Assembly: GCF_000196355.1 (NCBI RefSeq)
Contig: NC_007614.1
Coordinates: 2,310,001 to 2,342,000, forward strand
Source of the DNA: Nitrosospira multiformis ATCC 25196
GTDB taxonomy: Bacteria; Pseudomonadota; Gammaproteobacteria; Burkholderiales; Nitrosomonadaceae
DNA length: 32,000 nucleotides
Direction: 5' to 3'
This document shows positions 2,987 through 32,000 of this stretch, one piece after another. Under the pieces are notes generated by a model. It was not told where the DNA came from. It saw only the letters and a program-made list of their open reading frames with translations, and searched no databases. Both the position numbers and the translations under genes were made by a program. Numbering within the stretch: the stretch's first letter is position 1; every line of letters starts with the position of its first letter.

Positions 2987-3049
2987 TCTCTTATGTCGCG
3001 TCAGAGATTCATAATTAAGATAAATTCTCTATGGCTCGCGAGATGCTCG

Positions 3050-3197
3050 TTAATCCGTCATTCGGAGCATTTTGGCTATTTCTGAAATACGATAAGGCTT
3101 CCTTATAAATCTAAAGTTTTCTATGGGAGGATTTTCAGCTCTTGATGCAGGAAAGGTACAACCCGAAGCCAAGATTACTTTGATATCGGGAAGAAGG
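3050..3197 (-). pseudogene. Out-of-frame C-terminal remnant of the kinase's receiver domain
   Basis: A different frame, starting right after the kinase stop, reads NLLPDIKVILASGCTFPASRAENPPIENFRFIRKPYRISEIAKMLRMTD*. This corresponds to beta4-alpha5 of a CheY-like receiver. The middle part, including the phospho-acceptor Asp, is absent. Confidence 0.7.
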
Positions 3198-4814
3198 TTA
3201 CGTGGTGATCTCCAGAAGATCCGCCTGATCATCCACCACCAATGCCTTCTCATTTCCGCTTGCCAGGCCCCCGGAACCTTCATTCGTATCCCCTTCCAGC
3301 GCTGGCACGAATAGGGAAATAGCAGTGCCTTTGCCCACCGCCGTTTCAATTACCATATCCCCGCCGAATTGCTTGATCGTCCCGTACACCTGACTCAGCC
3401 CCAGCCCTGACCCTTTGCCAACCTCCTTAGTGGTAAAGAACGGCTCCACGGCTTGGGCCGCTACTTCCGGCAGCATCCCTGTACCGGTATCTTTCACAGT
3501 AACTTTCACATAGCGTCCTGCTGGCAGCTCATTGATTTCCTTTTCATCCAGTTCGAGCTGTTCAGTACTCAACGTAATAGCGCCCCCATCGGGCGTAGCG
3601 TCACGCGCATTGATAACCAGGTTTAATAATGCCGCCTCGAAGTGCGGCGCATCGATGATTACCGGTGGTAAAAGCGGATCAAGTTTCACATCAAACTCAA
3701 CAGAACCTTTATTGGCTCTGCGAAGTACCGGTTCAAAAGAACGTATGACGTGATTCAAATTGTACTTATCTTGCTTTAAGGGTTGCTTGCGAGCAAACGT
3801 CAACAATTGTTGCGTTAACATCGTCCCCTGAGCGGCTGCGCGCTGCATGCTTTCGAGCATCCGGGTGGAAGTTGGCGTCTGTGCTTGCTTTGCAATGATT
3901 TCAATCCCGTTGACAATGACGTTAAGCAGGTTATTGAAGTCGTGAGCAATCCCGCCCGTCAATTTGCCGATCGCTTCCAGCTTCTGGGACTGGAACAAGG
4001 CTTCTTTGGCACGCTCCAGCGCCTGCTCGGCCTCTCGCTTTCCCGTGATATCGCGCGTGATTTTTGCAAAACCAATCAATTCGCCAAGAGCGTTTCTAAT
4101 TGGGTCTATCACTACATTTGCCCAAAACCTGGAGCCGTCTTTCCGTACCCGCCAGCCTTCGCCTTCAAAGCGACCATCCGCTTCCGCAGTCTGTAATGCC
4201 ACCAATGGCAAGTCCTTGGCCTTGTCTTCCTGTATATAAAAGCGGGAGAAATGAGTGCCAACGGCTTCAGTTTGATCGAAGCCAGTAATCCGACGTGCCC
4301 CTGGATTCCAATTGGTAATGGTGCCATCTACCGACAGCATGTAGAGCGCGTAGTCCGTCACGCCCTCGACCAGTAACCGGAATTGCTCCTCACTGGCGTG
4401 CAGAGCCTCGGTTGCCTTCTTGCGCGCGGTAATATCACGGGTGATTTTAGCGAAACCAATCAGCATGCCCTCGGGATCCCGAATTGGATCAATGACGATG
4501 CTGGCCCAGAACCGATTGCCATCCTTGCGCACGCGCCAGCCTTCATCTTCGAATCTTCCCTCTTTGGCTGCCGTTTGCAAGGCCTTGAATGGAATATTGG
4601 CCGCCCTGTCTTCCTCTGTATAAAACCGGGAGAAGTGCTGACCTATGATTTCTTCAGCCGTATAGCCTTTAAACCTCTGCGCACCAGCATTCCAACTGCA
4701 GACGCGGCCTTCAGGGTTGAGCATGTAAAGCGCGTAGTCAGTTACGCTGGCAACGAATAGCTGAAAGCGTTCTGATTCAGCATATGACTCGATAGAAAGG
4801 GAGGACAGTGTCAT
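3198..4814 (-). CDS. Sensor histidine kinase: two tandem PAS/PAC domains, HisKA, HATPase_c, then only the first strand of a receiver domain before a stop
   Basis: Two PAS units share DYALYML..G....WN.GA.R..G...E..G.HFSRFY..ED.A...P..ALQTA...GRFE.EGWRVRKDG.RFWA..VIDPIR. The H-box is GGIAHDFNNLL and the G-boxes are DTGTGM and GKGSGLGL. The protein ends KALVVDDQADLLEITT*. The ORF-track start is TTG at 4835; ATG at 4814 has the better SD (GAAGG). Confidence 0.85.
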   Translation of the reverse strand: MTLSSLSIESYAESERFQLFVASVTDYALYMLNPEGRVCSWNAGAQRFKGYTAEEIIGQHFSRFYTEEDRAANIPFKALQTAAKEGRFEDEGWRVRKDGNRFWASIVIDPIRDPEGMLIGFAKITRDITARKKATEALHASEEQFRLLVEGVTDYALYMLSVDGTITNWNPGARRITGFDQTEAVGTHFSRFYIQEDKAKDLPLVALQTAEADGRFEGEGWRVRKDGSRFWANVVIDPIRNALGELIGFAKITRDITGKREAEQALERAKEALFQSQKLEAIGKLTGGIAHDFNNLLNVIVNGIEIIAKQAQTPTSTRMLESMQRAAAQGTMLTQQLLTFARKQPLKQDKYNLNHVIRSFEPVLRRANKGSVEFDVKLDPLLPPVIIDAPHFEAALLNLVINARDATPDGGAITLSTEQLELDEKEINELPAGRYVKVTVKDTGTGMLPEVAAQAVEPFFTTKEVGKGSGLGLSQVYGTIKQFGGDMVIETAVGKGTAISLFVPALEGDTNEGSGGLASGNEKALVVDDQADLLEITT

Positions 4815-5212
4815 TTTTACCTTCATATAAAGCAAGCTAATGATTATTTGCCTAAGGAAAGCTTACTCATCATGCGTGTTTCCGAAATGGAGGGTACCTG
4901 GGAACCTCAGTTCTCGGATATATACTGATGAGGTGTTATATTTTAATCAGGACCTCCTCAGGAGGGAAAATAAATGGATAAGAGCTATCAAGTCGAACAA
5001 GGCAGCGATTATCAACCCAGCGAGTATTGGACCTTGCTTTAGAGGCACAGGAATCGAGGGCACCAATTGCTACGGGTATCCCCTCCCAGAAAAGCATTTT
5101 TTAACACCTTATTTTCTCCTTTCTTCTTTTTAATTGAGATTTATGCCAAATGGCAAGCTAGAGAAGCAAGAAATACGCCAGTGTTCTTTTTCCATAAGGT
5201 TTAGAGGTTTAT

Positions 5213-5692
5213 GTGAGAAAGGCTAGAAGGGAAGTAAAAATCTTTCCTGTCAAATCCTGGACACTCGGCAACGGGCAGAACATCGTCCGCAACTTCGACC
5301 TCGATGGGCGCATCACAAGCCATAGCCTTGGATCGCTTGCCTACGATGCGGCTTCGCGCATCACCGGCATATCCCTGGGCGGCGTCAGTATCGTAGGCAG
5401 CAGCAAGACTTACGGCTATGATGCCACGGATCGGCTGATTTCCTTCAGCGACGGAACGTCGGCTGAGACCTATGCTTATGACGCAGCTGGCAATCGCACT
5501 GGCCAGACCATCAACGGCATGGCCTACACCTACTCCGTGAGTTATGCCAGCAACCGTCTGGACGCGATGGCCGGACCGGGCAGTTCCCTGCACTACAGCT
5601 ATGACGCCAACGGCAGCCTGGTCAATGACGGCCAGAGGAGTGAGTCACTTACCTTGACAATCCGTATTCATCATGATCTAGTTTTCAAATGA
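5213..5692 (+). pseudogene. RHS / YD-repeat protein fragment, truncated at both ends
   Basis: Repeated YD motifs are present: YGYDATDRL, YAYDAAGNRTGQ, YSYDANGSLVNDG. There is no N-terminal domain, RHS core end or toxin tip. Homology stops near 5640. Confidence 0.7.
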
Positions 5693-6019
5693 AGGAGCCC
5701 GCGACAATTATTCAAAGAAGGAGTGACTCGTCATGAAAACAGCCTTTAGTTCTAAAGTAATGCGAAGCTTGATCCTTGCCGCCTCCCTGTGCGGGAGTGT
5801 CGGCTTCCTTTCCCCTGCCTTCGGCCAGTCTTTCGATACCTCATACCTTATCGACCTGAACACGAAAGAATGGACCAGATTGGGAACTTTGGGGAGTTAC
5901 GGTTCCATTTATTTCGGTTCCACTTCCGCATACGCCATCAATGATTCCGGACGGGTGGTCGGTACGGCTAGCACAATTCCTCCTTCTGATCCTAATGATC
6001 AATTATTTTATATTCCTAG

Positions 6020-25621: not shown

Positions 25622-26443
25622 TTATTTCAACTTTCTCATTTCCTCAGCCAGTACCCATAAGGCGCGGTTAAGCTTCACATTTTGATCGATGCCGGTCACA
25701 GCGCGGGTGGTCATGGAGCGCCCAGATTTGTTCCTCCCTCGTAGACCGCCCTTGATCATATTTTCCTGAACACGGCTGAAGGTCGTCCACATGTCGCTTG
25801 CGCGATCGGAGAAACGCCTTGGCGTCAGTAAATCCCGCTCCGTAATTGGCACTGGTTTTTCCGAATCTTCATATTTGAGGGTCAAGGCGGCTCGTGCGAA
25901 AGCCGCTTGTTCGCCTTTATTCAAGGTGAGCGATTTCATCTCTTCGAGCTGCTCATCGACTGTCTCAAAGCTCTCCAGCACACTATATGCGCCATCAATG
26001 ATGGTGTTCACGGCATCGCCGTTATGCCGCACCCGCACATCATGCAAGGTGTCTCCACAGACCATTCCATTGGCGCACACGAACCGGAACATTCCGGCCA
26101 TCATCTGGCAGGAACTGCTGCCGTCATGGCTGTTGAGCAGGATGATCTCGTTTGCTTCCTCGCCATTGATCTGGCTTGCATGGCGCAAACGAAGCATATG
26201 CCTGGTGTATTCCCGCTTCCCTTCGTCCCGCACGCGCGCCTGGCAAACCATGAAAGGCTCGAATCCTTCATGGCGCAGGCCTCGCAGGATTTCCCTGGTA
26301 GGAATGTAGGCGTACCGGTGAGAACGGCTGTGATGCTTGCCCTGGGCAAAGATTGAGGGTGCAACCCACGCTATCTGTTCATCGGACAGCGGACGTTCGG
26401 AACGGAAAACTGCAGGGGTATGGAAAGTGCTAGCGAGTGTCAT
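25622..26443 (-). CDS. DUF932-family protein, typical of ICE and plasmid backbones
   Basis: Reads MTLASTFHTPAVFRSERPLSDEQI...YIPTREIL..L...GF.PF...Q.RVR...REYT.HMLRLRH...EIILLNSHDGSSSCQMMAGMFRFVCANGMVCGD. AGGAGG lies 5 nt before the ATG at 26443. Confidence 0.75.
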   Translation of the reverse strand: MTLASTFHTPAVFRSERPLSDEQIAWVAPSIFAQGKHHSRSHRYAYIPTREILRGLRHEGFEPFMVCQARVRDEGKREYTRHMLRLRHASQINGEEANEIILLNSHDGSSSCQMMAGMFRFVCANGMVCGDTLHDVRVRHNGDAVNTIIDGAYSVLESFETVDEQLEEMKSLTLNKGEQAAFARAALTLKYEDSEKPVPITERDLLTPRRFSDRASDMWTTFSRVQENMIKGGLRGRNKSGRSMTTRAVTGIDQNVKLNRALWVLAEEMRKLK

Positions 26444-26568
26444 GATTGCCTCCTTGAAGAGATGGTTGATGAAGGAGAAGTTGTGAAAATCACATCCTCT
26501 CATTCGGACTCTCCTCGCCTCGCCCCTGGGGGCGACGGGAGTGGGGAGACAGCCCTTGCCCTCACGGG

Positions 26569-27094: not shown

Positions 27095-27718
27095 TTACCT
27101 CTTTCTGACACGTGGACCAGGATCGAATTCCACGCCGATCCGGTATTTCTCGACGAAGCCTGGCCACTCCACATGCTCGGGCAGATCGATGTCGTCGACC
27201 ACCTTGACCTTGCCCTGTGCCCGCTCGAACAATGCGATGCTGGTAGAGGGAAAGTTGTTGCGCGACGGATAGAGTACCCCGTCGAACAGCGGCACGTGAT
27301 CGGCATCCAACATCGCATGCACCCGAGCGGAAACCTGCTGCGTGTGCGTGTAGTCACGGCTGGCCAATTGCTCCAAGGTCAAACCAAAGTAGCCTGCCAT
27401 GACGCCTGCGGCTGTGAGGTCCGCCAATTGCAGAGCGTCCACTACACCGACCGCGCGTACCAGCCGGCTCTGGACTTCAGTCAACGTAATCGAGCGTTTG
27501 GTGTCCTGGCCCCACTGGTGTTTGTGAAACACCGACTCCATTAATGCCGTGGGTAGATCGGGGCCAAGGTAGAGCACACCATAGTTCCTGGCCGGATCGT
27601 CATAGCGGTTCGTGCCATCGTGGCCGTAGTACAGCGGCGTACCGCGGTAGGCAACTCGGCTCACATGCTGAAGTAACTCACGTGAGTCGATGCGCAGCGT
27701 GGGAAGCTCGATGCCCAT
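27095..27718 (-). CDS. RES-domain toxin (MbcT/ParT-like NAD-targeting family)
   Basis: Contains YRGTPLYYG...NRYDDP..NYGVLYLGPDLPTALMES...FDGVLYPSRNN. The R, E and S signature residues are in the expected order. It lies immediately downstream of the Xre-type partner. Confidence 0.8.
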   Translation of the reverse strand: MGIELPTLRIDSRELLQHVSRVAYRGTPLYYGHDGTNRYDDPARNYGVLYLGPDLPTALMESVFHKHQWGQDTKRSITLTEVQSRLVRAVGVVDALQLADLTAAGVMAGYFGLTLEQLASRDYTHTQQVSARVHAMLDADHVPLFDGVLYPSRNNFPSTSIALFERAQGKVKVVDDIDLPEHVEWPGFVEKYRIGVEFDPGPRVRKR

Positions 27719-27730
27719 GCCAGCCTTCCG

Positions 27731-28357
27731 TCAATGCACGCCAAGCACATTGAAGACCGCTTTTGCCACTGCATTGACCGAATCGGCAGTCACCACCTCC
27801 ACCGGCGAACGCCCGGCCAATCCTTCGAGCGGTTCGGACAGGGCGCGGTACAGCGTCCAGGCATCAACATCGAGCGCAGCCTGTAGCACGATCTGGGTCA
27901 GTTGCTGTTTCACCGGATCGAGCTGCCAGTCGGGCAACCTCTGGCCCCGCGGCCCCACGTTCAGCGCCAACAGCCGGCGCGCTTCGATGTCCTTGTAGAT
28001 CTGCTGGCGCGACTTGTTCGCCAGCCGGGCAAAGTCTGGTAGCGGCAGGTTATGCGACTGCTCGAAAGCCTCCAACAACAGGGCACGACCGCGCTGGATG
28101 TCAGTCTGGCTCGGTACCCAGCTGATGTCGGCACGCAACGCTGCAGCCTTCCTGGCCAAGGTCTGCTCCACCGGCTCCACTTCGATTTCCATGGACGATG
28201 GGAGTTCGATCGATTCAAGGCGTTCCTGCATGAACGCTTCCAGTTCGGCTGCAAAGGCCTGAGCATTCCGAATCTCGACAGTATTGGAGAAACGGCGTAC
28301 TTCATCCAAGGTCACCCTTGGCAGGTGGTTGGCAATGAATTCCAAGGTCTTGGGCAT
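27731..28357 (-). CDS. Xre-HTH antitoxin with a C-terminal MbcA/ParS (DUF2384) toxin-binding domain
   Basis: The HTH is LPDFARLANKSRQQIYKDIEARRL. The C-terminus is DAWTLYRALSEPLEGLAGRSPVEVV.ADSVNAVAKAV. It sits 12 nt upstream of the RES gene. Confidence 0.75.
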   Translation of the reverse strand: MPKTLEFIANHLPRVTLDEVRRFSNTVEIRNAQAFAAELEAFMQERLESIELPSSMEIEVEPVEQTLARKAAALRADISWVPSQTDIQRGRALLLEAFEQSHNLPLPDFARLANKSRQQIYKDIEARRLLALNVGPRGQRLPDWQLDPVKQQLTQIVLQAALDVDAWTLYRALSEPLEGLAGRSPVEVVTADSVNAVAKAVFNVLGVH

Positions 28358-28376: not shown

Positions 28377-28664
28377 ATGGAGACAAATCTAGTCGCCTTT
28401 GTCTCTTTTGTCAACTATGACAACCAACACTCGTCAAATGGGAACGGGCCTAGCATCCAATCTGCAAGTTCGCGACTCATCAGCAAGGATGGCAAACCGG
28501 TGGCCGCTCTGGTGGATGCGGAACTGTTCGCCCGCATCCGCCGCATGTATGACCGCTTCGATGAGCTCAGCAACCGTCTGGCTGAAAGATACAGGGATGT
28601 GCCCGAGGAAGAAGGTTTGACCGAGATCGATGCTCTGGTGGAAGAGGAACGGAAGAAGCGCTGA
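28377..28664 (+). CDS. Phd/YefM-like antitoxin, with an atypical N-terminus that may be degenerate
   Basis: Reads ...LISKDGKPVAALVDAELFARIRRMYDRFDEL...EEERKKR. The stop overlaps the ATG of the PIN gene (ATGA-type coupling at 28662-28666). Confidence 0.5.
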   Translation: METNLVAFVSFVNYDNQHSSNGNGPSIQSASSRLISKDGKPVAALVDAELFARIRRMYDRFDELSNRLAERYRDVPEEEGLTEIDALVEEERKKR

Positions 28665-28723
28665 TGTCGGTGTTGCGCGTCGTGCTCGACACCAATGTGC
28701 TGGTATCGGGCCTCGCATATTCG
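28664..28723 (+). pseudogene. PIN-domain (VapC-like) toxin; only the first ~20 codons remain
   Basis: Reads MSVLRVVLDTNVLVSGLAYS, the first acidic-residue motif of PIN toxins. The frame then runs into the antisense of another gene. Confidence 0.65.
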
Positions 28724-28899
28724 CCCAAGTCCAACAACGTGGCCCCGGGAAGCGCATCGACCAGCAGATCGAGGTCGCTGCCGTCCCGGTCGGTGCCATG
28801 CAGCACCGAACCGAAGACGCGCGGGTTCGCGGTGCGGAAGCGGCCTACCGCTTCACGCACTGCGCTTCGCTTCATGTCAAGCGCAACGGACGGTCGCAT
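28723..28899 (-). pseudogene. Minimal nucleotidyltransferase (MNT-type antitoxin of HEPN-MNT modules); only the 5' ~59 codons remain
   Basis: Reads MRPSVALDMKRSAVREAVGRFRTANPRVFGSVLHGTDRDGSDLDLLVDALPGATLLDLG, which contains the GS...D.D motif. Homology ends at the junction with the PIN fragment, and there is no HEPN partner. Confidence 0.65.
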
Positions 28900-29445
28900 A
28901 GCATTCTTCCTTATCGAAACGCGTTGAGATGATAGCAAGAATAGATTTTCAAGAATTATTTTCGAGAGAAACACGTTGCAACAAATCTGACCAATTCCAT
29001 TAGATATAACTGAAACAGCAGCTTAAGAAGCTTATCCACAACCCTATCCCCGGTCTATCCCCGGTAACAGGGGAAAACCTCATTATCCCGCCCTTCACCT
29101 GGGAAAGCTTCACTGGCCCGAAGTAACGGCTATCGAAGGATGCCAGCTCACATCCGATATGAGCAGCAATTCAGACTCCTTCAAAGTGTAATCAGAAAAC
29201 GGATAGCGGGGCAGAACCTGCCTGGGCTGTCCTCTTCGCGCGGCGCGCTTGCCGGCAAAACCTTACCATTGACGGCAATTCCCCATGCATTCAATCGGGC
29301 ATATAGCAGATTGTTGCCGTTGTTGCCACCAAGAGCTGCTCCCTAGACGGGATAAACACTGGAGTAGCAGCGTGGAACACATCAATACCTTGAGAAAAAA
29401 GGTAAGTTCGTCGGCATCATAAGTTTCTACAGGGACAAAAAACAT

Positions 29446-30480
29446 TCATCGAGTCGCGATTATGGCGCCAAAGTACTCAGCGGTGAACTGTGCCGGGCTC
29501 AGCTCCGACTGATGGTAGGTGGCACGCAACGCGCTGACCGGACCCACCGGGTTGCCCCAGGTCCAGACGTCGAAATCGACTGTGCCATACTCTGTCACGA
29601 CAATCGGAGATTTCAAGACAGCGTTGTGGGTGTCATTGCCGGGCCCGGTTATGGTTTCCTTGAACATTCGCGAATCGATCGACAGAATGACGACGCTGGT
29701 CTGCGGATCGAGCTTCGCCGCGGCGGCAAAATTGTTCTTCGAACCGCGGCCGTCCGCCAGGGACACATCCTTGAACACTCCTGTCGCGCGCAACCAGTCG
29801 GCGACCTCGCCATTGGAGGAACCGCTTCCCCAATCGTCGCTTGGCGTGCCGTCGTAGCTGATAATAAAATTGTTCGCGTCACGCAGCGCGCTCATCATCA
29901 TCCACTCTGCGCTCCATTTAATTGCGTCCTTGTCGGCACTGTTCCTGTCCACCATCATTTTCGCCACCTTGGTGAAGTCCTGCGATCTGAGGCTCTCCCT
30001 CGGCCGGACCCAGACGTCGGTACCGACCGAAGCAGCGCCGCCGTTGTATAGTTGCACACAATACCGGGCTACGGACCAAGGGTCCTCCGACAACCAGACA
30101 TAAAGGAACGCGGCCTCGCCGCACAGGCCATTGCCCCCCTGGTTGACGAGGTACGGGCTATCAAGCAGAAGCTCGAGGCGATCCGCCACGCTCGTGCGAT
30201 CGAGGCCCGGCCACTTGCCCCGGCCCACCTGCCCCCGGAAACGATTGATCATCGTCTTGGCCTTGGCCACGGCTAAAGGCCGGTCGAGACGGGCGGGAGG
30301 TGAGCTCCCTTTCGACGCAAGCCCATACACCAGCGAACCCACCGAGGCCGCCGCAGCCAGCGGCAGCAGATACTTGTCCGCGTAGATGGAGAGGGGATTC
30401 TGAAAACCTGAGTAATTGGGATCGTTCATGAACAGATTACCCGTGCGGTGCGGCCGCGTCGTATATATGAAATCGGGCAA
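29446..30480 (-). CDS. Membrane-anchored papain-like (clan CA) cysteine peptidase homolog
   Basis: The TM helix is YLLPLAAAASVGSLVYGLA. VNQGGNGLCGEAAF compares with papain NQGSCGSCWAF, with the same Gln-to-Cys spacing. DTHNAVL compares with DHAV, and DVWTWG compares with NSWG. The start is either the TTG at 30480 or the ATG at 30429. Confidence 0.6.
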   Translation of the reverse strand: MPDFIYTTRPHRTGNLFMNDPNYSGFQNPLSIYADKYLLPLAAAASVGSLVYGLASKGSSPPARLDRPLAVAKAKTMINRFRGQVGRGKWPGLDRTSVADRLELLLDSPYLVNQGGNGLCGEAAFLYVWLSEDPWSVARYCVQLYNGGAASVGTDVWVRPRESLRSQDFTKVAKMMVDRNSADKDAIKWSAEWMMMSALRDANNFIISYDGTPSDDWGSGSSNGEVADWLRATGVFKDVSLADGRGSKNNFAAAAKLDPQTSVVILSIDSRMFKETITGPGNDTHNAVLKSPIVVTEYGTVDFDVWTWGNPVGPVSALRATYHQSELSPAQFTAEYFGAIIATR

Positions 30481-30481
30481 A

Positions 30482-31465
30482 TCACAGCAGATCGTAGATG
30501 GGCTGAAAGTAAGGGCCGACGGTATAGGGATACGGCGTAGACGATACCTTCTGGAATGGCACCGGCTGGATCATGTTCATGCGGCCCCCGTCGCCGTTCC
30601 AGGCCCAGCCGAACACCGGCCAGTCCCTGGATTTTGCGTACTTGACGAGATCGGCCCATGGGGTCTTGCCGCCCGAGCCGTCGTCACCGAATTCCCCCAG
30701 CATGCAACCCCGGCCCGTCGCCGCCAGTTCGTCGAGGTCGGCCGTGGTCATCGCCCGCTGCCTTGACAGCGAGAAGGCTTGCGGATAGACATGCGCCGAG
30801 AGAATGATCTTGGGATCCTTAAGGGTCTGGCCGGACTTGCCGACGACGGCAAGAGCCGCGGTGTGCGCCTCCTGCCCGAAGCCCGGGAGGTCTACGATGA
30901 TGGGGCCGTCGTAGACGCTGCGCACGGTGGCGATGGCCTGGTTGTAGCTCGCCGCATAGTCGTTGGGGGTGATGGCGTGGCCACCCCATTCGTTCATCAG
31001 GTTAATGGTGAATGCACCAGCCTTGCTTAAAGAGGAGTAGTTGGTGACCCACCAGGCTGCGGCCTTGAAGAGTTCATTCGGGTCGTCCATGAGCAGCTGG
31101 TCGTTGGTGAGGATCGCTGCGCTGTGAAAGGTCGCAATGACCGCGTACTTGCGGCTTACGGCCTCGCGGATCCAGCGCTCGGCAACCGCCTCCCGGCCCA
31201 TCTCGATCTCGATCCGCACCGACTTGATCTTGGGGTATTTCGCCATCAGGTTCCATCCCAGGTCGACGTCACCGTCGTAGTAATAGGACGGTTGCAGATT
31301 GACGCCGTTGCCGAGTCCCGCTGTGATCGCCGAGGCAACCCGACCGCCTGCAGTATACGGCGAGGACGGACTTTGAGATCCGGCGTAGCTTGCCATACCG
31401 TCGCCAGCGGCGGCATAGCCGCCAGACGGTTGCTGCAGGCTGCTGTAGTCATCGCCGCCGGCCAT
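30482..31465 (-). CDS. GH5-like glycoside hydrolase with no signal peptide and a Gly/Ser/Tyr/Ala-rich N-terminus
   Basis: Contains INLMNEWGGH (acid/base NE), SAHVYP and CMLGEFGDDG (nucleophile E), and starts GVNLQPSYY. The N-terminus is MAGGDDYSSLQQPSGGYAAAGDGMASYAGSQSPSSPY. The ATG lies 5 nt after the upstream stop. Confidence 0.65.
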   Translation of the reverse strand: MAGGDDYSSLQQPSGGYAAAGDGMASYAGSQSPSSPYTAGGRVASAITAGLGNGVNLQPSYYYDGDVDLGWNLMAKYPKIKSVRIEIEMGREAVAERWIREAVSRKYAVIATFHSAAILTNDQLLMDDPNELFKAAAWWVTNYSSLSKAGAFTINLMNEWGGHAITPNDYAASYNQAIATVRSVYDGPIIVDLPGFGQEAHTAALAVVGKSGQTLKDPKIILSAHVYPQAFSLSRQRAMTTADLDELAATGRGCMLGEFGDDGSGGKTPWADLVKYAKSRDWPVFGWAWNGDGGRMNMIQPVPFQKVSSTPYPYTVGPYFQPIYDLL

Positions 31466-31470
31466 GGGGG

Positions 31471-32000
31471 TCAGGGGAGCGGATAGGTGGGCAACAAATC
31501 CTGCCGGTTGCGCAGATACACGAGTTCGGTGGGCACCACGATCTCCCAGGGAGCCCCCACGAACACCGCACCCACGGCATGCTTCATATTGTTCCCGCTG
31601 GCATCGGGGTAGGGTTTGTCGATAATGATCGTCCAAGTCGAATTGTCTCCGACAGTGGTCTGCTCCACCTTGACGATCCGGTAGACCTTGAAGTTCACCA
31701 GAATCTCGCGGTCGACGTCATTGTCGAGCGTCAACGTCGCCGGTTGGTCATTGATGAGATCCCAATAGAAGTTGCTGTCCGTCAGCGTCAGGGTGTCGCT
31801 GCCCTGCACCGCCGCGATCAGCCCCGGCCGGTCGTTGTAGTCGCATTGATCGGCTTCTTTCAGCTCCTGGATCATGGCCACGTAGTCATCATCGCCTGGG
31901 GCCGGCGGCTCGCCGGTGGCGCCCCAGATCTGGCCGGTCTTCAGGAACCAGCTGAACACCGACTCGAGTCCGGGCCGCACTGGAACCTGCACGCGCGCGG
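31471..32000 (-). CDS. Protein of unknown function, C-terminal part only (open to the window end)
   Basis: The frame is open from the window edge to 31471. Coding-like composition and tight coupling to the GH5-like gene support it. I recognise no motif. Confidence 0.5.
   Translation of the reverse strand, partial: ARVQVPVRPGLESVFSWFLKTGQIWGATGEPPAPGDDDYVAMIQELKEADQCDYNDRPGLIAAVQGSDTLTLTDSNFYWDLINDQPATLTLDNDVDREILVNFKVYRIVKVEQTTVGDNSTWTIIIDKPYPDASGNNMKHAVGAVFVGAPWEIVVPTELVYLRNRQDLLPTYPLP

Follow-up and report, generated by a model that had tools for sequence, protein, structure and literature searches.

Three minus-strand genes, here called A, B, and C, lie at the end of a 32,000-nucleotide (nt) stretch of the Nitrosospira multiformis ATCC 25196 genome (contig NC_007614.1, positions 2,310,001 to 2,342,000), which we refer to as the window and number from its first letter. 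The genes are co-directional, with measured intergenic gaps of 5 nt between A and B and 52 nt between B and C, as befits the tightly coupled module of an unknown protein, a glycoside hydrolase family 5 (GH5)-like glycosidase, and a papain-like cysteine peptidase that had been proposed in an earlier note on this DNA. That note also recognized that the first gene is cut by the window edge, and extension past position 32000 showed it to be a core gene whose intact product has ~942 amino acids (aa). What the note could not see is that A belongs to a very large protein family and is the constant part of a gene set whose downstream enzymes vary. In the window lies the 3' two-thirds of such a cassette, acquired horizontally and made up of core gene A plus two client enzymes, and its organization suggests a means of gathering or delivering enzymes that has not been described before. 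The region upstream of the window was read from NCBI contig FNVK01000033.1 (GCA_900108135.1; L001 in our numbering of loci), which is identical to the window over all 11,519 shared bases and in which position 5335 corresponds to window position 32000; an exact look-up with B had found this contig together with a Logan assembly (L002).

Homologs of A are single ~942-aa proteins, among them P0001 (942 aa; 97% identical to A), and the closest genome match is a Nitrosospira metagenome-assembled genome with 94% identity. The 176 close homologs (~940 aa; 55 to 97% identity) are all labeled "hypothetical," nearly all lack a Pfam domain, and span at least six phyla, among them Proteobacteria, Bacteroidota, Actinobacteriota, Chloroflexota, and Acidobacteriota, with hosts that include Nitrosospira, Sphingomonas, Burkholderia, Ralstonia, Pseudarthrobacter, Acidimicrobiia, Chloroflexia, Chitinophagaceae, and Bryobacteraceae. 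The G+C content of A genes varies from 35 to 62% and tracks that of the host flanks while the protein is still ~60% identical, which suggests both that these genes have long been resident in their hosts and that the protein is under strong structural constraint. An exhaustive profile search extended the family to a superfamily of 3,605 clusters at 50% identity, 2,011 of them with E < 1e-30; its distant members are 1,000 to 1,150 aa long and have profile positions 238 to 940 in common, while their N termini differ.

The genes downstream of A share a tag. At the loci examined (22 genome loci with 10-kb flanks and 38 metagenome loci), A is directly followed by one to three genes whose products have a disordered N terminus of two to four repeats of ~10 residues (Y-x3-Q-x-P-x3). 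Their common start is M-x-(D/N)-x-(D/N)-Y-x2-L-Q-x-P-x3-Y-x9-Y, and the N termini of 32 downstream proteins align as M-x-D-x-(D/N)-Y-x2-L-Q-x-P-x3-Y-x9-Y. Both B, which starts MAGGDDYSSLQQPSGGY...Y...SPY, and C, which starts MNDPNYSGFQNPLSIYADKY, carry it. The Gly/Ser/Tyr/Ala-rich, low-complexity N terminus and the missing signal peptide that had first been remarked on in B are indeed there, but the low-complexity region is no oddity of B: it is the shared tag of the system, present on the peptidase as well, where it makes up the first 20 residues. The Y/Q/P/G/S composition of the tag recalls prion-like oligopeptide repeats.

A hidden Markov model (HMM) of the tag, built from the genome loci only with the 38 metagenome loci left out, was run on 6,331 six-frame segments from 62 loci. 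It gave ~60 matches at E < 1e-3, all of them on the strand of A and 6 to 1,820 nt past the A stop codon, save two antisense artifacts, and it found no tag inside A. A tagged gene begins within 200 nt after A in 45 of the 56 loci having post-A sequence, and at loci other than ours the first tagged gene typically starts 6 to 25 nt past the A stop; most of the other 11 loci have visibly similar Tyr/Gly/Ser/Pro-rich N termini that score below the threshold. Nine tagged GH5 clients all have tag tyrosines at residues 7, 17, 27, and 37 (sister clients with this spacing are found at L003, L013, L020, L025, L032, L044, L045, and L053), and this spacing of exactly 10 residues identifies the tag as a 10-residue repeat.

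Behind the tag, the enzyme bodies are exchanged. The 64 tagged proteins sort into 18 clusters, mostly peptidases and polysaccharide or cell wall enzymes, with Pfam matches to GH5, GH3 (2.5e-37), Polysacc_deac_1 (a NodB-type deacetylase; 4e-16), the calpain-type Peptidase_C2 (3e-9), an OmpA-like domain (4e-8), and DUF2515 (5e-23). Four other clients contain an HExxH motif by sequence reading, and two of these four have subthreshold Peptidase_M10/M66 or SprT-like matches. The commonest client (27 loci among L004 to L061) is ~265 aa long and has no Pfam match; we infer for it a strand-His ... strand-Cys order that may be reminiscent of caspase-fold peptidases. Subgroups of this client can be told apart by the patterns NGEVTIL...FFTHAN...VLYGCD and VVYxGH[ST]...AxC. 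GH5 clients follow A in 15 loci, and C-like clients occur in 8, invariably as the second gene behind a GH5 and ~1,040 to 1,060 nt from the A stop. The trio thus occurs together elsewhere, the A-GH5-C order recurring in 7 further loci (including L013, L025, L028, L029, L046, and L032) with GH5 proteins 58 to 95% and C proteins 47 to 93% identical to those described here, and it is a conserved sub-architecture inside a polymorphic system. Besides the tagged genes, no conserved up- or downstream partner was found among 23 genome loci with 10-kb flanks, and none of the neighbor clusters contained a recurrent small gene of the immunity type behind the tagged genes.

Judged by its sequence, B is a GH5 glycosidase of the beta-mannanase-like kind. 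It matches PF00150 (E = 1.4e-9; 38.3 bits against a cutoff of 23.5), and the NEW, H-x-Y, and GEFG motifs from which GH5 membership was originally proposed (N158-E159-W160, H225/Y227, and G257-E258-F259-G260) are invariant in the nine tagged GH5 homologs. Its nearest solved relatives are the GH5 beta-mannanases 1bqc, 1wky, and 3jug, and its NE, H-x-Y, and GEFG motifs align with those of 1bqc and 1wky, in alignments to mannanases that cover only ~170 residues (E = 5e-8 to 2e-4). While B shares the PF00150 match and these motifs with GH5 subfamily-8-type beta-mannanases, it differs from them in carrying a 48-residue Tyr-repeat tag at its N terminus and in having neither a signal peptide nor a carbohydrate-binding module.

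For C, 29 homologs were found, and residues Q97, C103, H268, W289, W291, and G292 are invariant across 19 homologs, down to 34% identity. The papain active-site set initially read from C therefore stands for Gln, Cys, and His but not for Asp, as D287 (in DVWTWG) varies between D, R, N, and S and no other invariant Asp or Asn lies close to the His. In the predicted model (predicted local distance difference test [pLDDT] score, 79; predicted template modeling [pTM] score, 0.80), C103 opens a helix (residues 103 to 115) and H268 opens a strand (residues 268 to 272). A catalytic Cys at the start of a helix together with a His at the start of a strand is a hallmark of the papain fold. A fold search gave weak matches (E = 3e-3 to 0.5; template modeling scores of 0.22 to 0.32), the best 20 being mostly clan CA peptidases plus a CdiA-CT toxin; C has no usable match in Pfam, NCBIfam, PHROGs, or PADLOC and nothing significant among PDB sequences. 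Since the model is good and shows this hallmark but the fold matches are statistically weak, we call C papain-like, in an unnamed family, and do not assign it to a named one. With the clan CA proteins (cathepsin L, the calpain core, Lpg2622, IdeS, and the CdiA-CT toxin) it has in common the Gln six residues before the helix-start Cys and the strand-start His, as well as the aromatic-rich W-x-W-G motif after the His, whereas it has no conserved third residue and no Pfam or NCBIfam family match, and its N terminus is the cassette tag.

The membrane anchor that had been assigned to C does not hold up. Its residues 21 to 39 form a borderline transmembrane candidate, with a Kyte-Doolittle maximum of 1.59 over 19 residues, and the maxima in the C-like proteins of the sister cassettes L028 and L032 reach only 0.0 to 0.2; a membrane anchor is no feature of the C family. 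Some C homologs are ~545 aa long and have the same body fused to PG_binding_1, while in others the body is joined to an unrelated N-terminal domain without known identity (alternative fusions are represented by P0133, P0135, P0136, P0138, P0149, P0128, and P0129). A Tolypothrix homolog has a hydrophobic N terminus that, judged by eye, resembles a signal peptide. The occurrence of the C body with PG_binding_1, with a putative signal peptide, or with another N-terminal domain suggests a portable module whose site of action is extracellular, with the cell wall as its probable target.

The core protein itself belongs to no family that we could name. Pfam, NCBIfam, and PHROGs scans of A and of the 101-aa piece into which it is partly split in this genome (see below) gave no usable match, and PADLOC 2.0 gave only a partial match of ~15 bits between A and PtuB (E = 0.002 to 0.003) and none for the 101-aa piece. 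PDB sequences yielded nothing significant against A alone or against a 22-sequence profile of A, and eight divergent A-like proteins had no significant match in Pfam or PADLOC. With these scans naming no family for A or C, the view that no named secretion, lysis, defense, or polymorphic-toxin system fits the module is borne out. AlphaFold modeled A poorly (mean pLDDT, 55.7; pTM, 0.29) and left only two usable domains, namely, a helical N-terminal domain (residues 24 to 186) and a beta-sandwich jelly-roll (residues 440 to 650). A fold search with the predicted model assigned this jelly-roll to the C1q/TNF or small-capsid type, with matches to a cyanophage tail-fiber head (8ke9), circovirus and nanovirus capsids, the BC2L-C lectin, ExsFA, actinophage minor tail proteins, and C1q-like heads of giant viruses; that only such generic jelly-roll matches were obtained is explained by the poor model. 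The C1q/TNF-type jelly-roll is a fold typical of trimeric receptor-binding heads.

Two further regions of A are of interest. Residues 189 to 233 (P0001 numbering) contain an invariant eight-Cys cluster, R-C-x3-C ... C-x-C-x-C-x3-C-x6-C-x-C, whose pattern suggests a metal-binding or disulfide knot module. The N termini of the superfamily (A1 consensus; P0180, P0289, and P0195) carry an F-x-x-h-R-P-x-Q motif (RFQQLRPxQ) within the first ~15 residues, which persists even in distant members and is loosely like the tag core Y-x-x-L-Q-x-P; this motif might occupy the same site as the tag core of the clients. In this genome, A is split into two overlapping open reading frames (ORFs) of 101 and 841 aa (L001 positions 3037 to 5864; the break lies outside the window). 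The cause is one missing T at about L001 position 3339 (gct act tga aat versus ...FVATLKSS...), i.e., a 1-nt deletion after codon 101, and the same split is found in the independent Logan assembly L002. The frameshift suggests that the copy in this genome may be decaying or inactive, and A may be a pseudogene here or may be expressed as two pieces.

Four divergent A-like genes were inspected (within L063 to L067), and each is directly followed by one variable gene, encoding a phospholipase D (PLD)-type enzyme (PLDc), a metallophosphatase, an arginine-deiminase-domain (PAD) protein, and a protein of unknown type, respectively. The Tyr tag was sought on these neighbors and is absent. The divergent gene of L064 adjoins Gabija-like AAA_15/UvrD, PIN, Trypco2, and baeRF genes, and another adjoins reverse transcriptase, RadC, and ArdC genes. 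An A-like protein combined with one variable enzyme seems to be the general theme of the superfamily, and in the ~940-aa clade, which includes the window copy, the Tyr tag seems to serve for coupling.

We regard it as about an even call that we are dealing with a polymorphic effector module whose undescribed carrier, A, recognizes the tag. In this model, A would act as an oligomeric carrier or scaffold, a view prompted by the fact that its sole confident beta domain is a C1q/TNF-type jelly-roll. It would bind the repeat tag and so collect leaderless hydrolases from the same transcript, hold them and/or bring them through a membrane or to the surface of a target, and the delivered hydrolases would then degrade envelope polymers. 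Points that speak for outward delivery are the extracytoplasmic substrates of clients and the receptor-head-like jelly-roll of A. More tentatively, A and the Tyr-decapeptide tag could constitute a hitherto unrecognized single-protein apparatus for cargo recognition and delivery or holding, present in both monoderm and diderm bacteria, and thus a polymorphic effector system of a new class. The individual enzymes are new representatives of known kinds; it is the cassette, with its core protein and tag logic, that matches no catalogued system. We found no description of such a system in the literature, where absence is no proof of absence.

Several points weigh against a carrier role. That role is deduced solely from gene architecture, the model of A is poor, and the most conserved region of A (residues 650 to 800) is unmodeled. 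Neither A nor its clients carry a signal peptide, known secretion genes are absent from the neighborhood, the clients lack the downstream immunity gene of classical antibacterial polymorphic toxins, and the divergent A-like cassettes do without the Tyr tag. To our knowledge, a beta-mannanase-type GH5 has no obvious substrate in the bacterial envelope. Moreover, some of the contexts are defense or mobile islands, such as the Gabija-like genes of L064 and the toxin-antitoxin genes in the window, and these fit an intracellular defense role equally well.

Among known systems, the cassette has several features in common with polymorphic toxins (LXG, MIX, and Rhs/PAAR-linked effectors of type VII and type VI secretion systems [T7SS and T6SS]): a conserved N-terminal element on unrelated enzyme bodies, frequent swapping among close relatives, activities of the peptidase, glycosidase, or lipase type, and horizontal mobility. 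It differs from them in that A is unrelated to known secretion or carrier components, no secretion apparatus lies nearby in the 23 genome loci, the enzymes have no downstream immunity gene, a disordered Tyr decapeptide repeat stands in place of a folded domain, Pfam has no match for A or the tag, and the cassette occurs in monoderm and diderm phyla alike. The loading of encapsulins and of extracellular contractile injection systems (eCIS) such as the Photorhabdus virulence cassettes (PVC) likewise uses a disordered terminal peptide to mark diverse clients of one adjacent conserved structural protein; in contrast to encapsulins, A has no HK97-fold or encapsulin signature, in contrast to eCIS, genes for a sheath, tube, or baseplate are absent, and the clients are degradative and not metabolic. 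Anthrax protective antigen with lethal factor and edema factor and the Yersinia entomophaga toxin complex Yen-Tc with its chitinases both combine a large binding or translocating component with enzymes that are encoded by genes of their own and dock by way of the N terminus. The A cassette may resemble such binary or ABC-type toxins in layout, but no relation to them was seen in sequence or in fold, and it has no signal peptides.

The foremost competing explanation is an intracellular conflict system of the antiphage, abortive-infection type, in which A, as sensor or regulator, would hold the tagged enzymes in check until a trigger frees or activates them and the producer is killed or lysed, with effectors as swappable as in the cyclic oligonucleotide-based antiphage signaling system (CBASS), Avs, or Lamassu. 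The contexts described above, with toxin-antitoxin genes adjoining the module and divergent relatives beside Gabija-like or reverse transcriptase/RadC/ArdC genes, the fact that neither signal peptides nor immunity genes are present, and the enzymes of the divergent branch (PLD, metallophosphatase, and PAD are typical effector chemistries) speak for such a defense role, as do the self-contained, horizontally mobile two- or three-gene unit with its swappable effectors and the many client peptidases with an apparently caspase-like His...Cys order. We nevertheless consider it rather unlikely: PADLOC yields only the 15-bit partial PtuB match for A and nothing for B or C, A has no NTPase, nuclease, or other recognizable sensor domain, the defense island contexts come from the few loci inspected, and the mannanase-like GH5, GH3, NodB deacetylase, and OmpA-like clients, together with the PG_binding_1 paralogs of C, act on extracytoplasmic polymers. 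Two further mechanisms were considered and set aside. Amyloid signaling of the NOD-like receptor (NLR) type needs a matching motif on A, where the tag HMM finds none, and a gasdermin-like pore activated by proteases leaves the glycosidase and deacetylase clients unexplained.

Alternatively, A might self-assemble into a shell or large scaffold, similar to a nanocompartment, that sequesters the tagged hydrolases within the cell much as encapsulins load cargo. The short disordered tag common to unrelated enzymes beside one conserved protein, the extreme conservation of A despite host G+C drift, as expected of a self-assembling lattice, the tight gene spacing, suggestive of stoichiometric coexpression, and the resemblance of the jelly-roll to small viral capsid proteins would all agree with this, but the same jelly-roll matches tail-fiber and C1q heads equally well, and we think a shell improbable for a 940-aa protein that is far larger than known shell proteins, lacks an HK97/encapsulin signature or any Pfam match (the rest of the model being too poor to exclude other folds), and has degradative clients with external substrates instead of the oxidative stress, iron, or sulfur enzymes of known compartments. 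That the tag is mere low-complexity sequence, kept by recombination between neighbors and without a role in recognition, so that A and the enzymes would be functionally independent, is in line with its simple Y/G/S/Q/P composition and its absence from divergent A-like cassettes; it becomes very improbable in view of the D/N-Y, L-Q, P, and 10-residue Y period kept across unrelated bodies, phyla, and a G+C range of 35 to 62%, of the strict tie to the position just after A, and of the survival of the tag through many swaps of enzyme bodies. The least probable of the explanations, to which we give hardly any credence, is an effector set linked to a type IV secretion system (T4SS) or integrative and conjugative element (ICE), to a T6SS, or to a phage or tailocin (T4SS-, phage-, or tailocin-associated effectors of a mobile element were one suggestion of the earlier note), or else an ordinary prophage or tailocin cassette of tail fiber, depolymerase, and endolysin. 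A jelly-roll like the receptor-binding heads of phage tail fibers, hydrolytic clients, and a location in a G+C-rich segment that looks mobile and carries DUF932, toxin-antitoxin genes, and transposase fragments might have suggested as much, but PHROGs matches none of the three proteins, A is without relatives among the 2.9 million viral contigs scanned, no phage, tail, T4SS, or T6SS gene is conserved by A in the 23 genome loci, and the cassette is found in monoderm as well as diderm phyla.

A core protein whose superfamily comprises several thousand sequence clusters, from most of the major bacterial phyla of soil and fresh water, is missing from Pfam, NCBIfam, PADLOC, PHROGs, and PDB, and one short peptide tag that is easy to recognize marks ~18 unrelated enzyme families as partners of this one conserved protein. 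If tag-dependent binding, loading, or export by A is true, it would represent a new effector-handling mechanism with a portable targeting signal, and the tag would be usable to load arbitrary proteins. Should the cassette be a defense module instead, it would still be new, with an unusual tag-based coupling of effectors. The cassette would also give context to many "hypothetical" peptidases and glycosidases of metagenomes.

The coordinates of the module and of the neighboring genes in the window are collected in the table. For C, an alternative start codon is TTG 30480, which we disfavor because ATG 30429 yields MNDPNYSGFQNP, matching the N-terminal consensus of all sister genes. A 60-aa ORF at 29263 to 29445 on the minus strand begins right after the C stop; having no homolog among the other loci, it is probably spurious and no candidate for an immunity gene. 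When scanned for promoters and terminators, the module was indistinguishable from shuffled sequence, and megablast found no counterpart of it in E. coli genomes or plasmids.

Table: Features of the A-B-C module and its neighbors (window positions)
Feature	Position	Strand	Basis or remark
Gene A, 3' end (last 176 codons + stop)	31471-32000	-	frame open to window edge
A-B spacer, 5 nt	31466-31470	-	stop of A to ATG of B
Gene B, 327 aa	ATG 31465 to stop 30482	-	reading frame
B N-terminal tag, residues 1-48, four Tyr-centered ~10-residue repeats, begins DYSSLQQPSGGY	31322-31465	-	
B predicted GH5 catalytic body + stop	30482-31321	-	PF00150 + motif alignment
B predicted acid/base Glu159 codon	30989-30991	-	
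B predicted nucleophile Glu258 codon	30692-30694	-	
B-C spacer, 52 nt	30430-30481	-	
Gene C, 327 aa	ATG 30429 to stop 29446	-	reading frame
C N-terminal tag, residues 1-20, MNDPNYSGFQNPLSIYADKY, Y6/Y16/Y20	30370-30429	-	tag HMM E 6.7e-7 (L001 6906)
C Ala/Leu-rich hydrophobic stretch, residues 21-39, borderline transmembrane candidate	30313-30369	-	model pLDDT ~30
C Cys-peptidase-like body + stop	29446-30312	-	
C Gln97 codon	30139-30141	-	
C Cys103 codon	30121-30123	-	
C His268 codon	29626-29628	-	
C W289-x-W291-G292 motif	29554-29565	-	
Small overlapping toxin-antitoxin-like ORFs	28377-28974	both	
208-aa partner of RES-domain gene	27731-28357	-	
RES-domain gene	27095-27718	-	adjoins module
DUF932 gene	25622-26503	-	

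The module has a G+C content of 58 to 62%, compared with ~53% for its flanks, and the segment has 61 to 63%, compared with ~50 to 55% for most of the window; this contrast, together with the RES-domain and associated genes, agrees with the earlier description of a G+C-rich segment beside toxin-antitoxin genes. The RES, toxin-antitoxin-like, and DUF932 genes look like remnants of mobile elements. Beyond the RES and DUF932 genes lies a DUF4113 (UmuC C-terminal) fragment, and transposase fragments are also present in the same mobile-looking, G+C-rich segment as the module.

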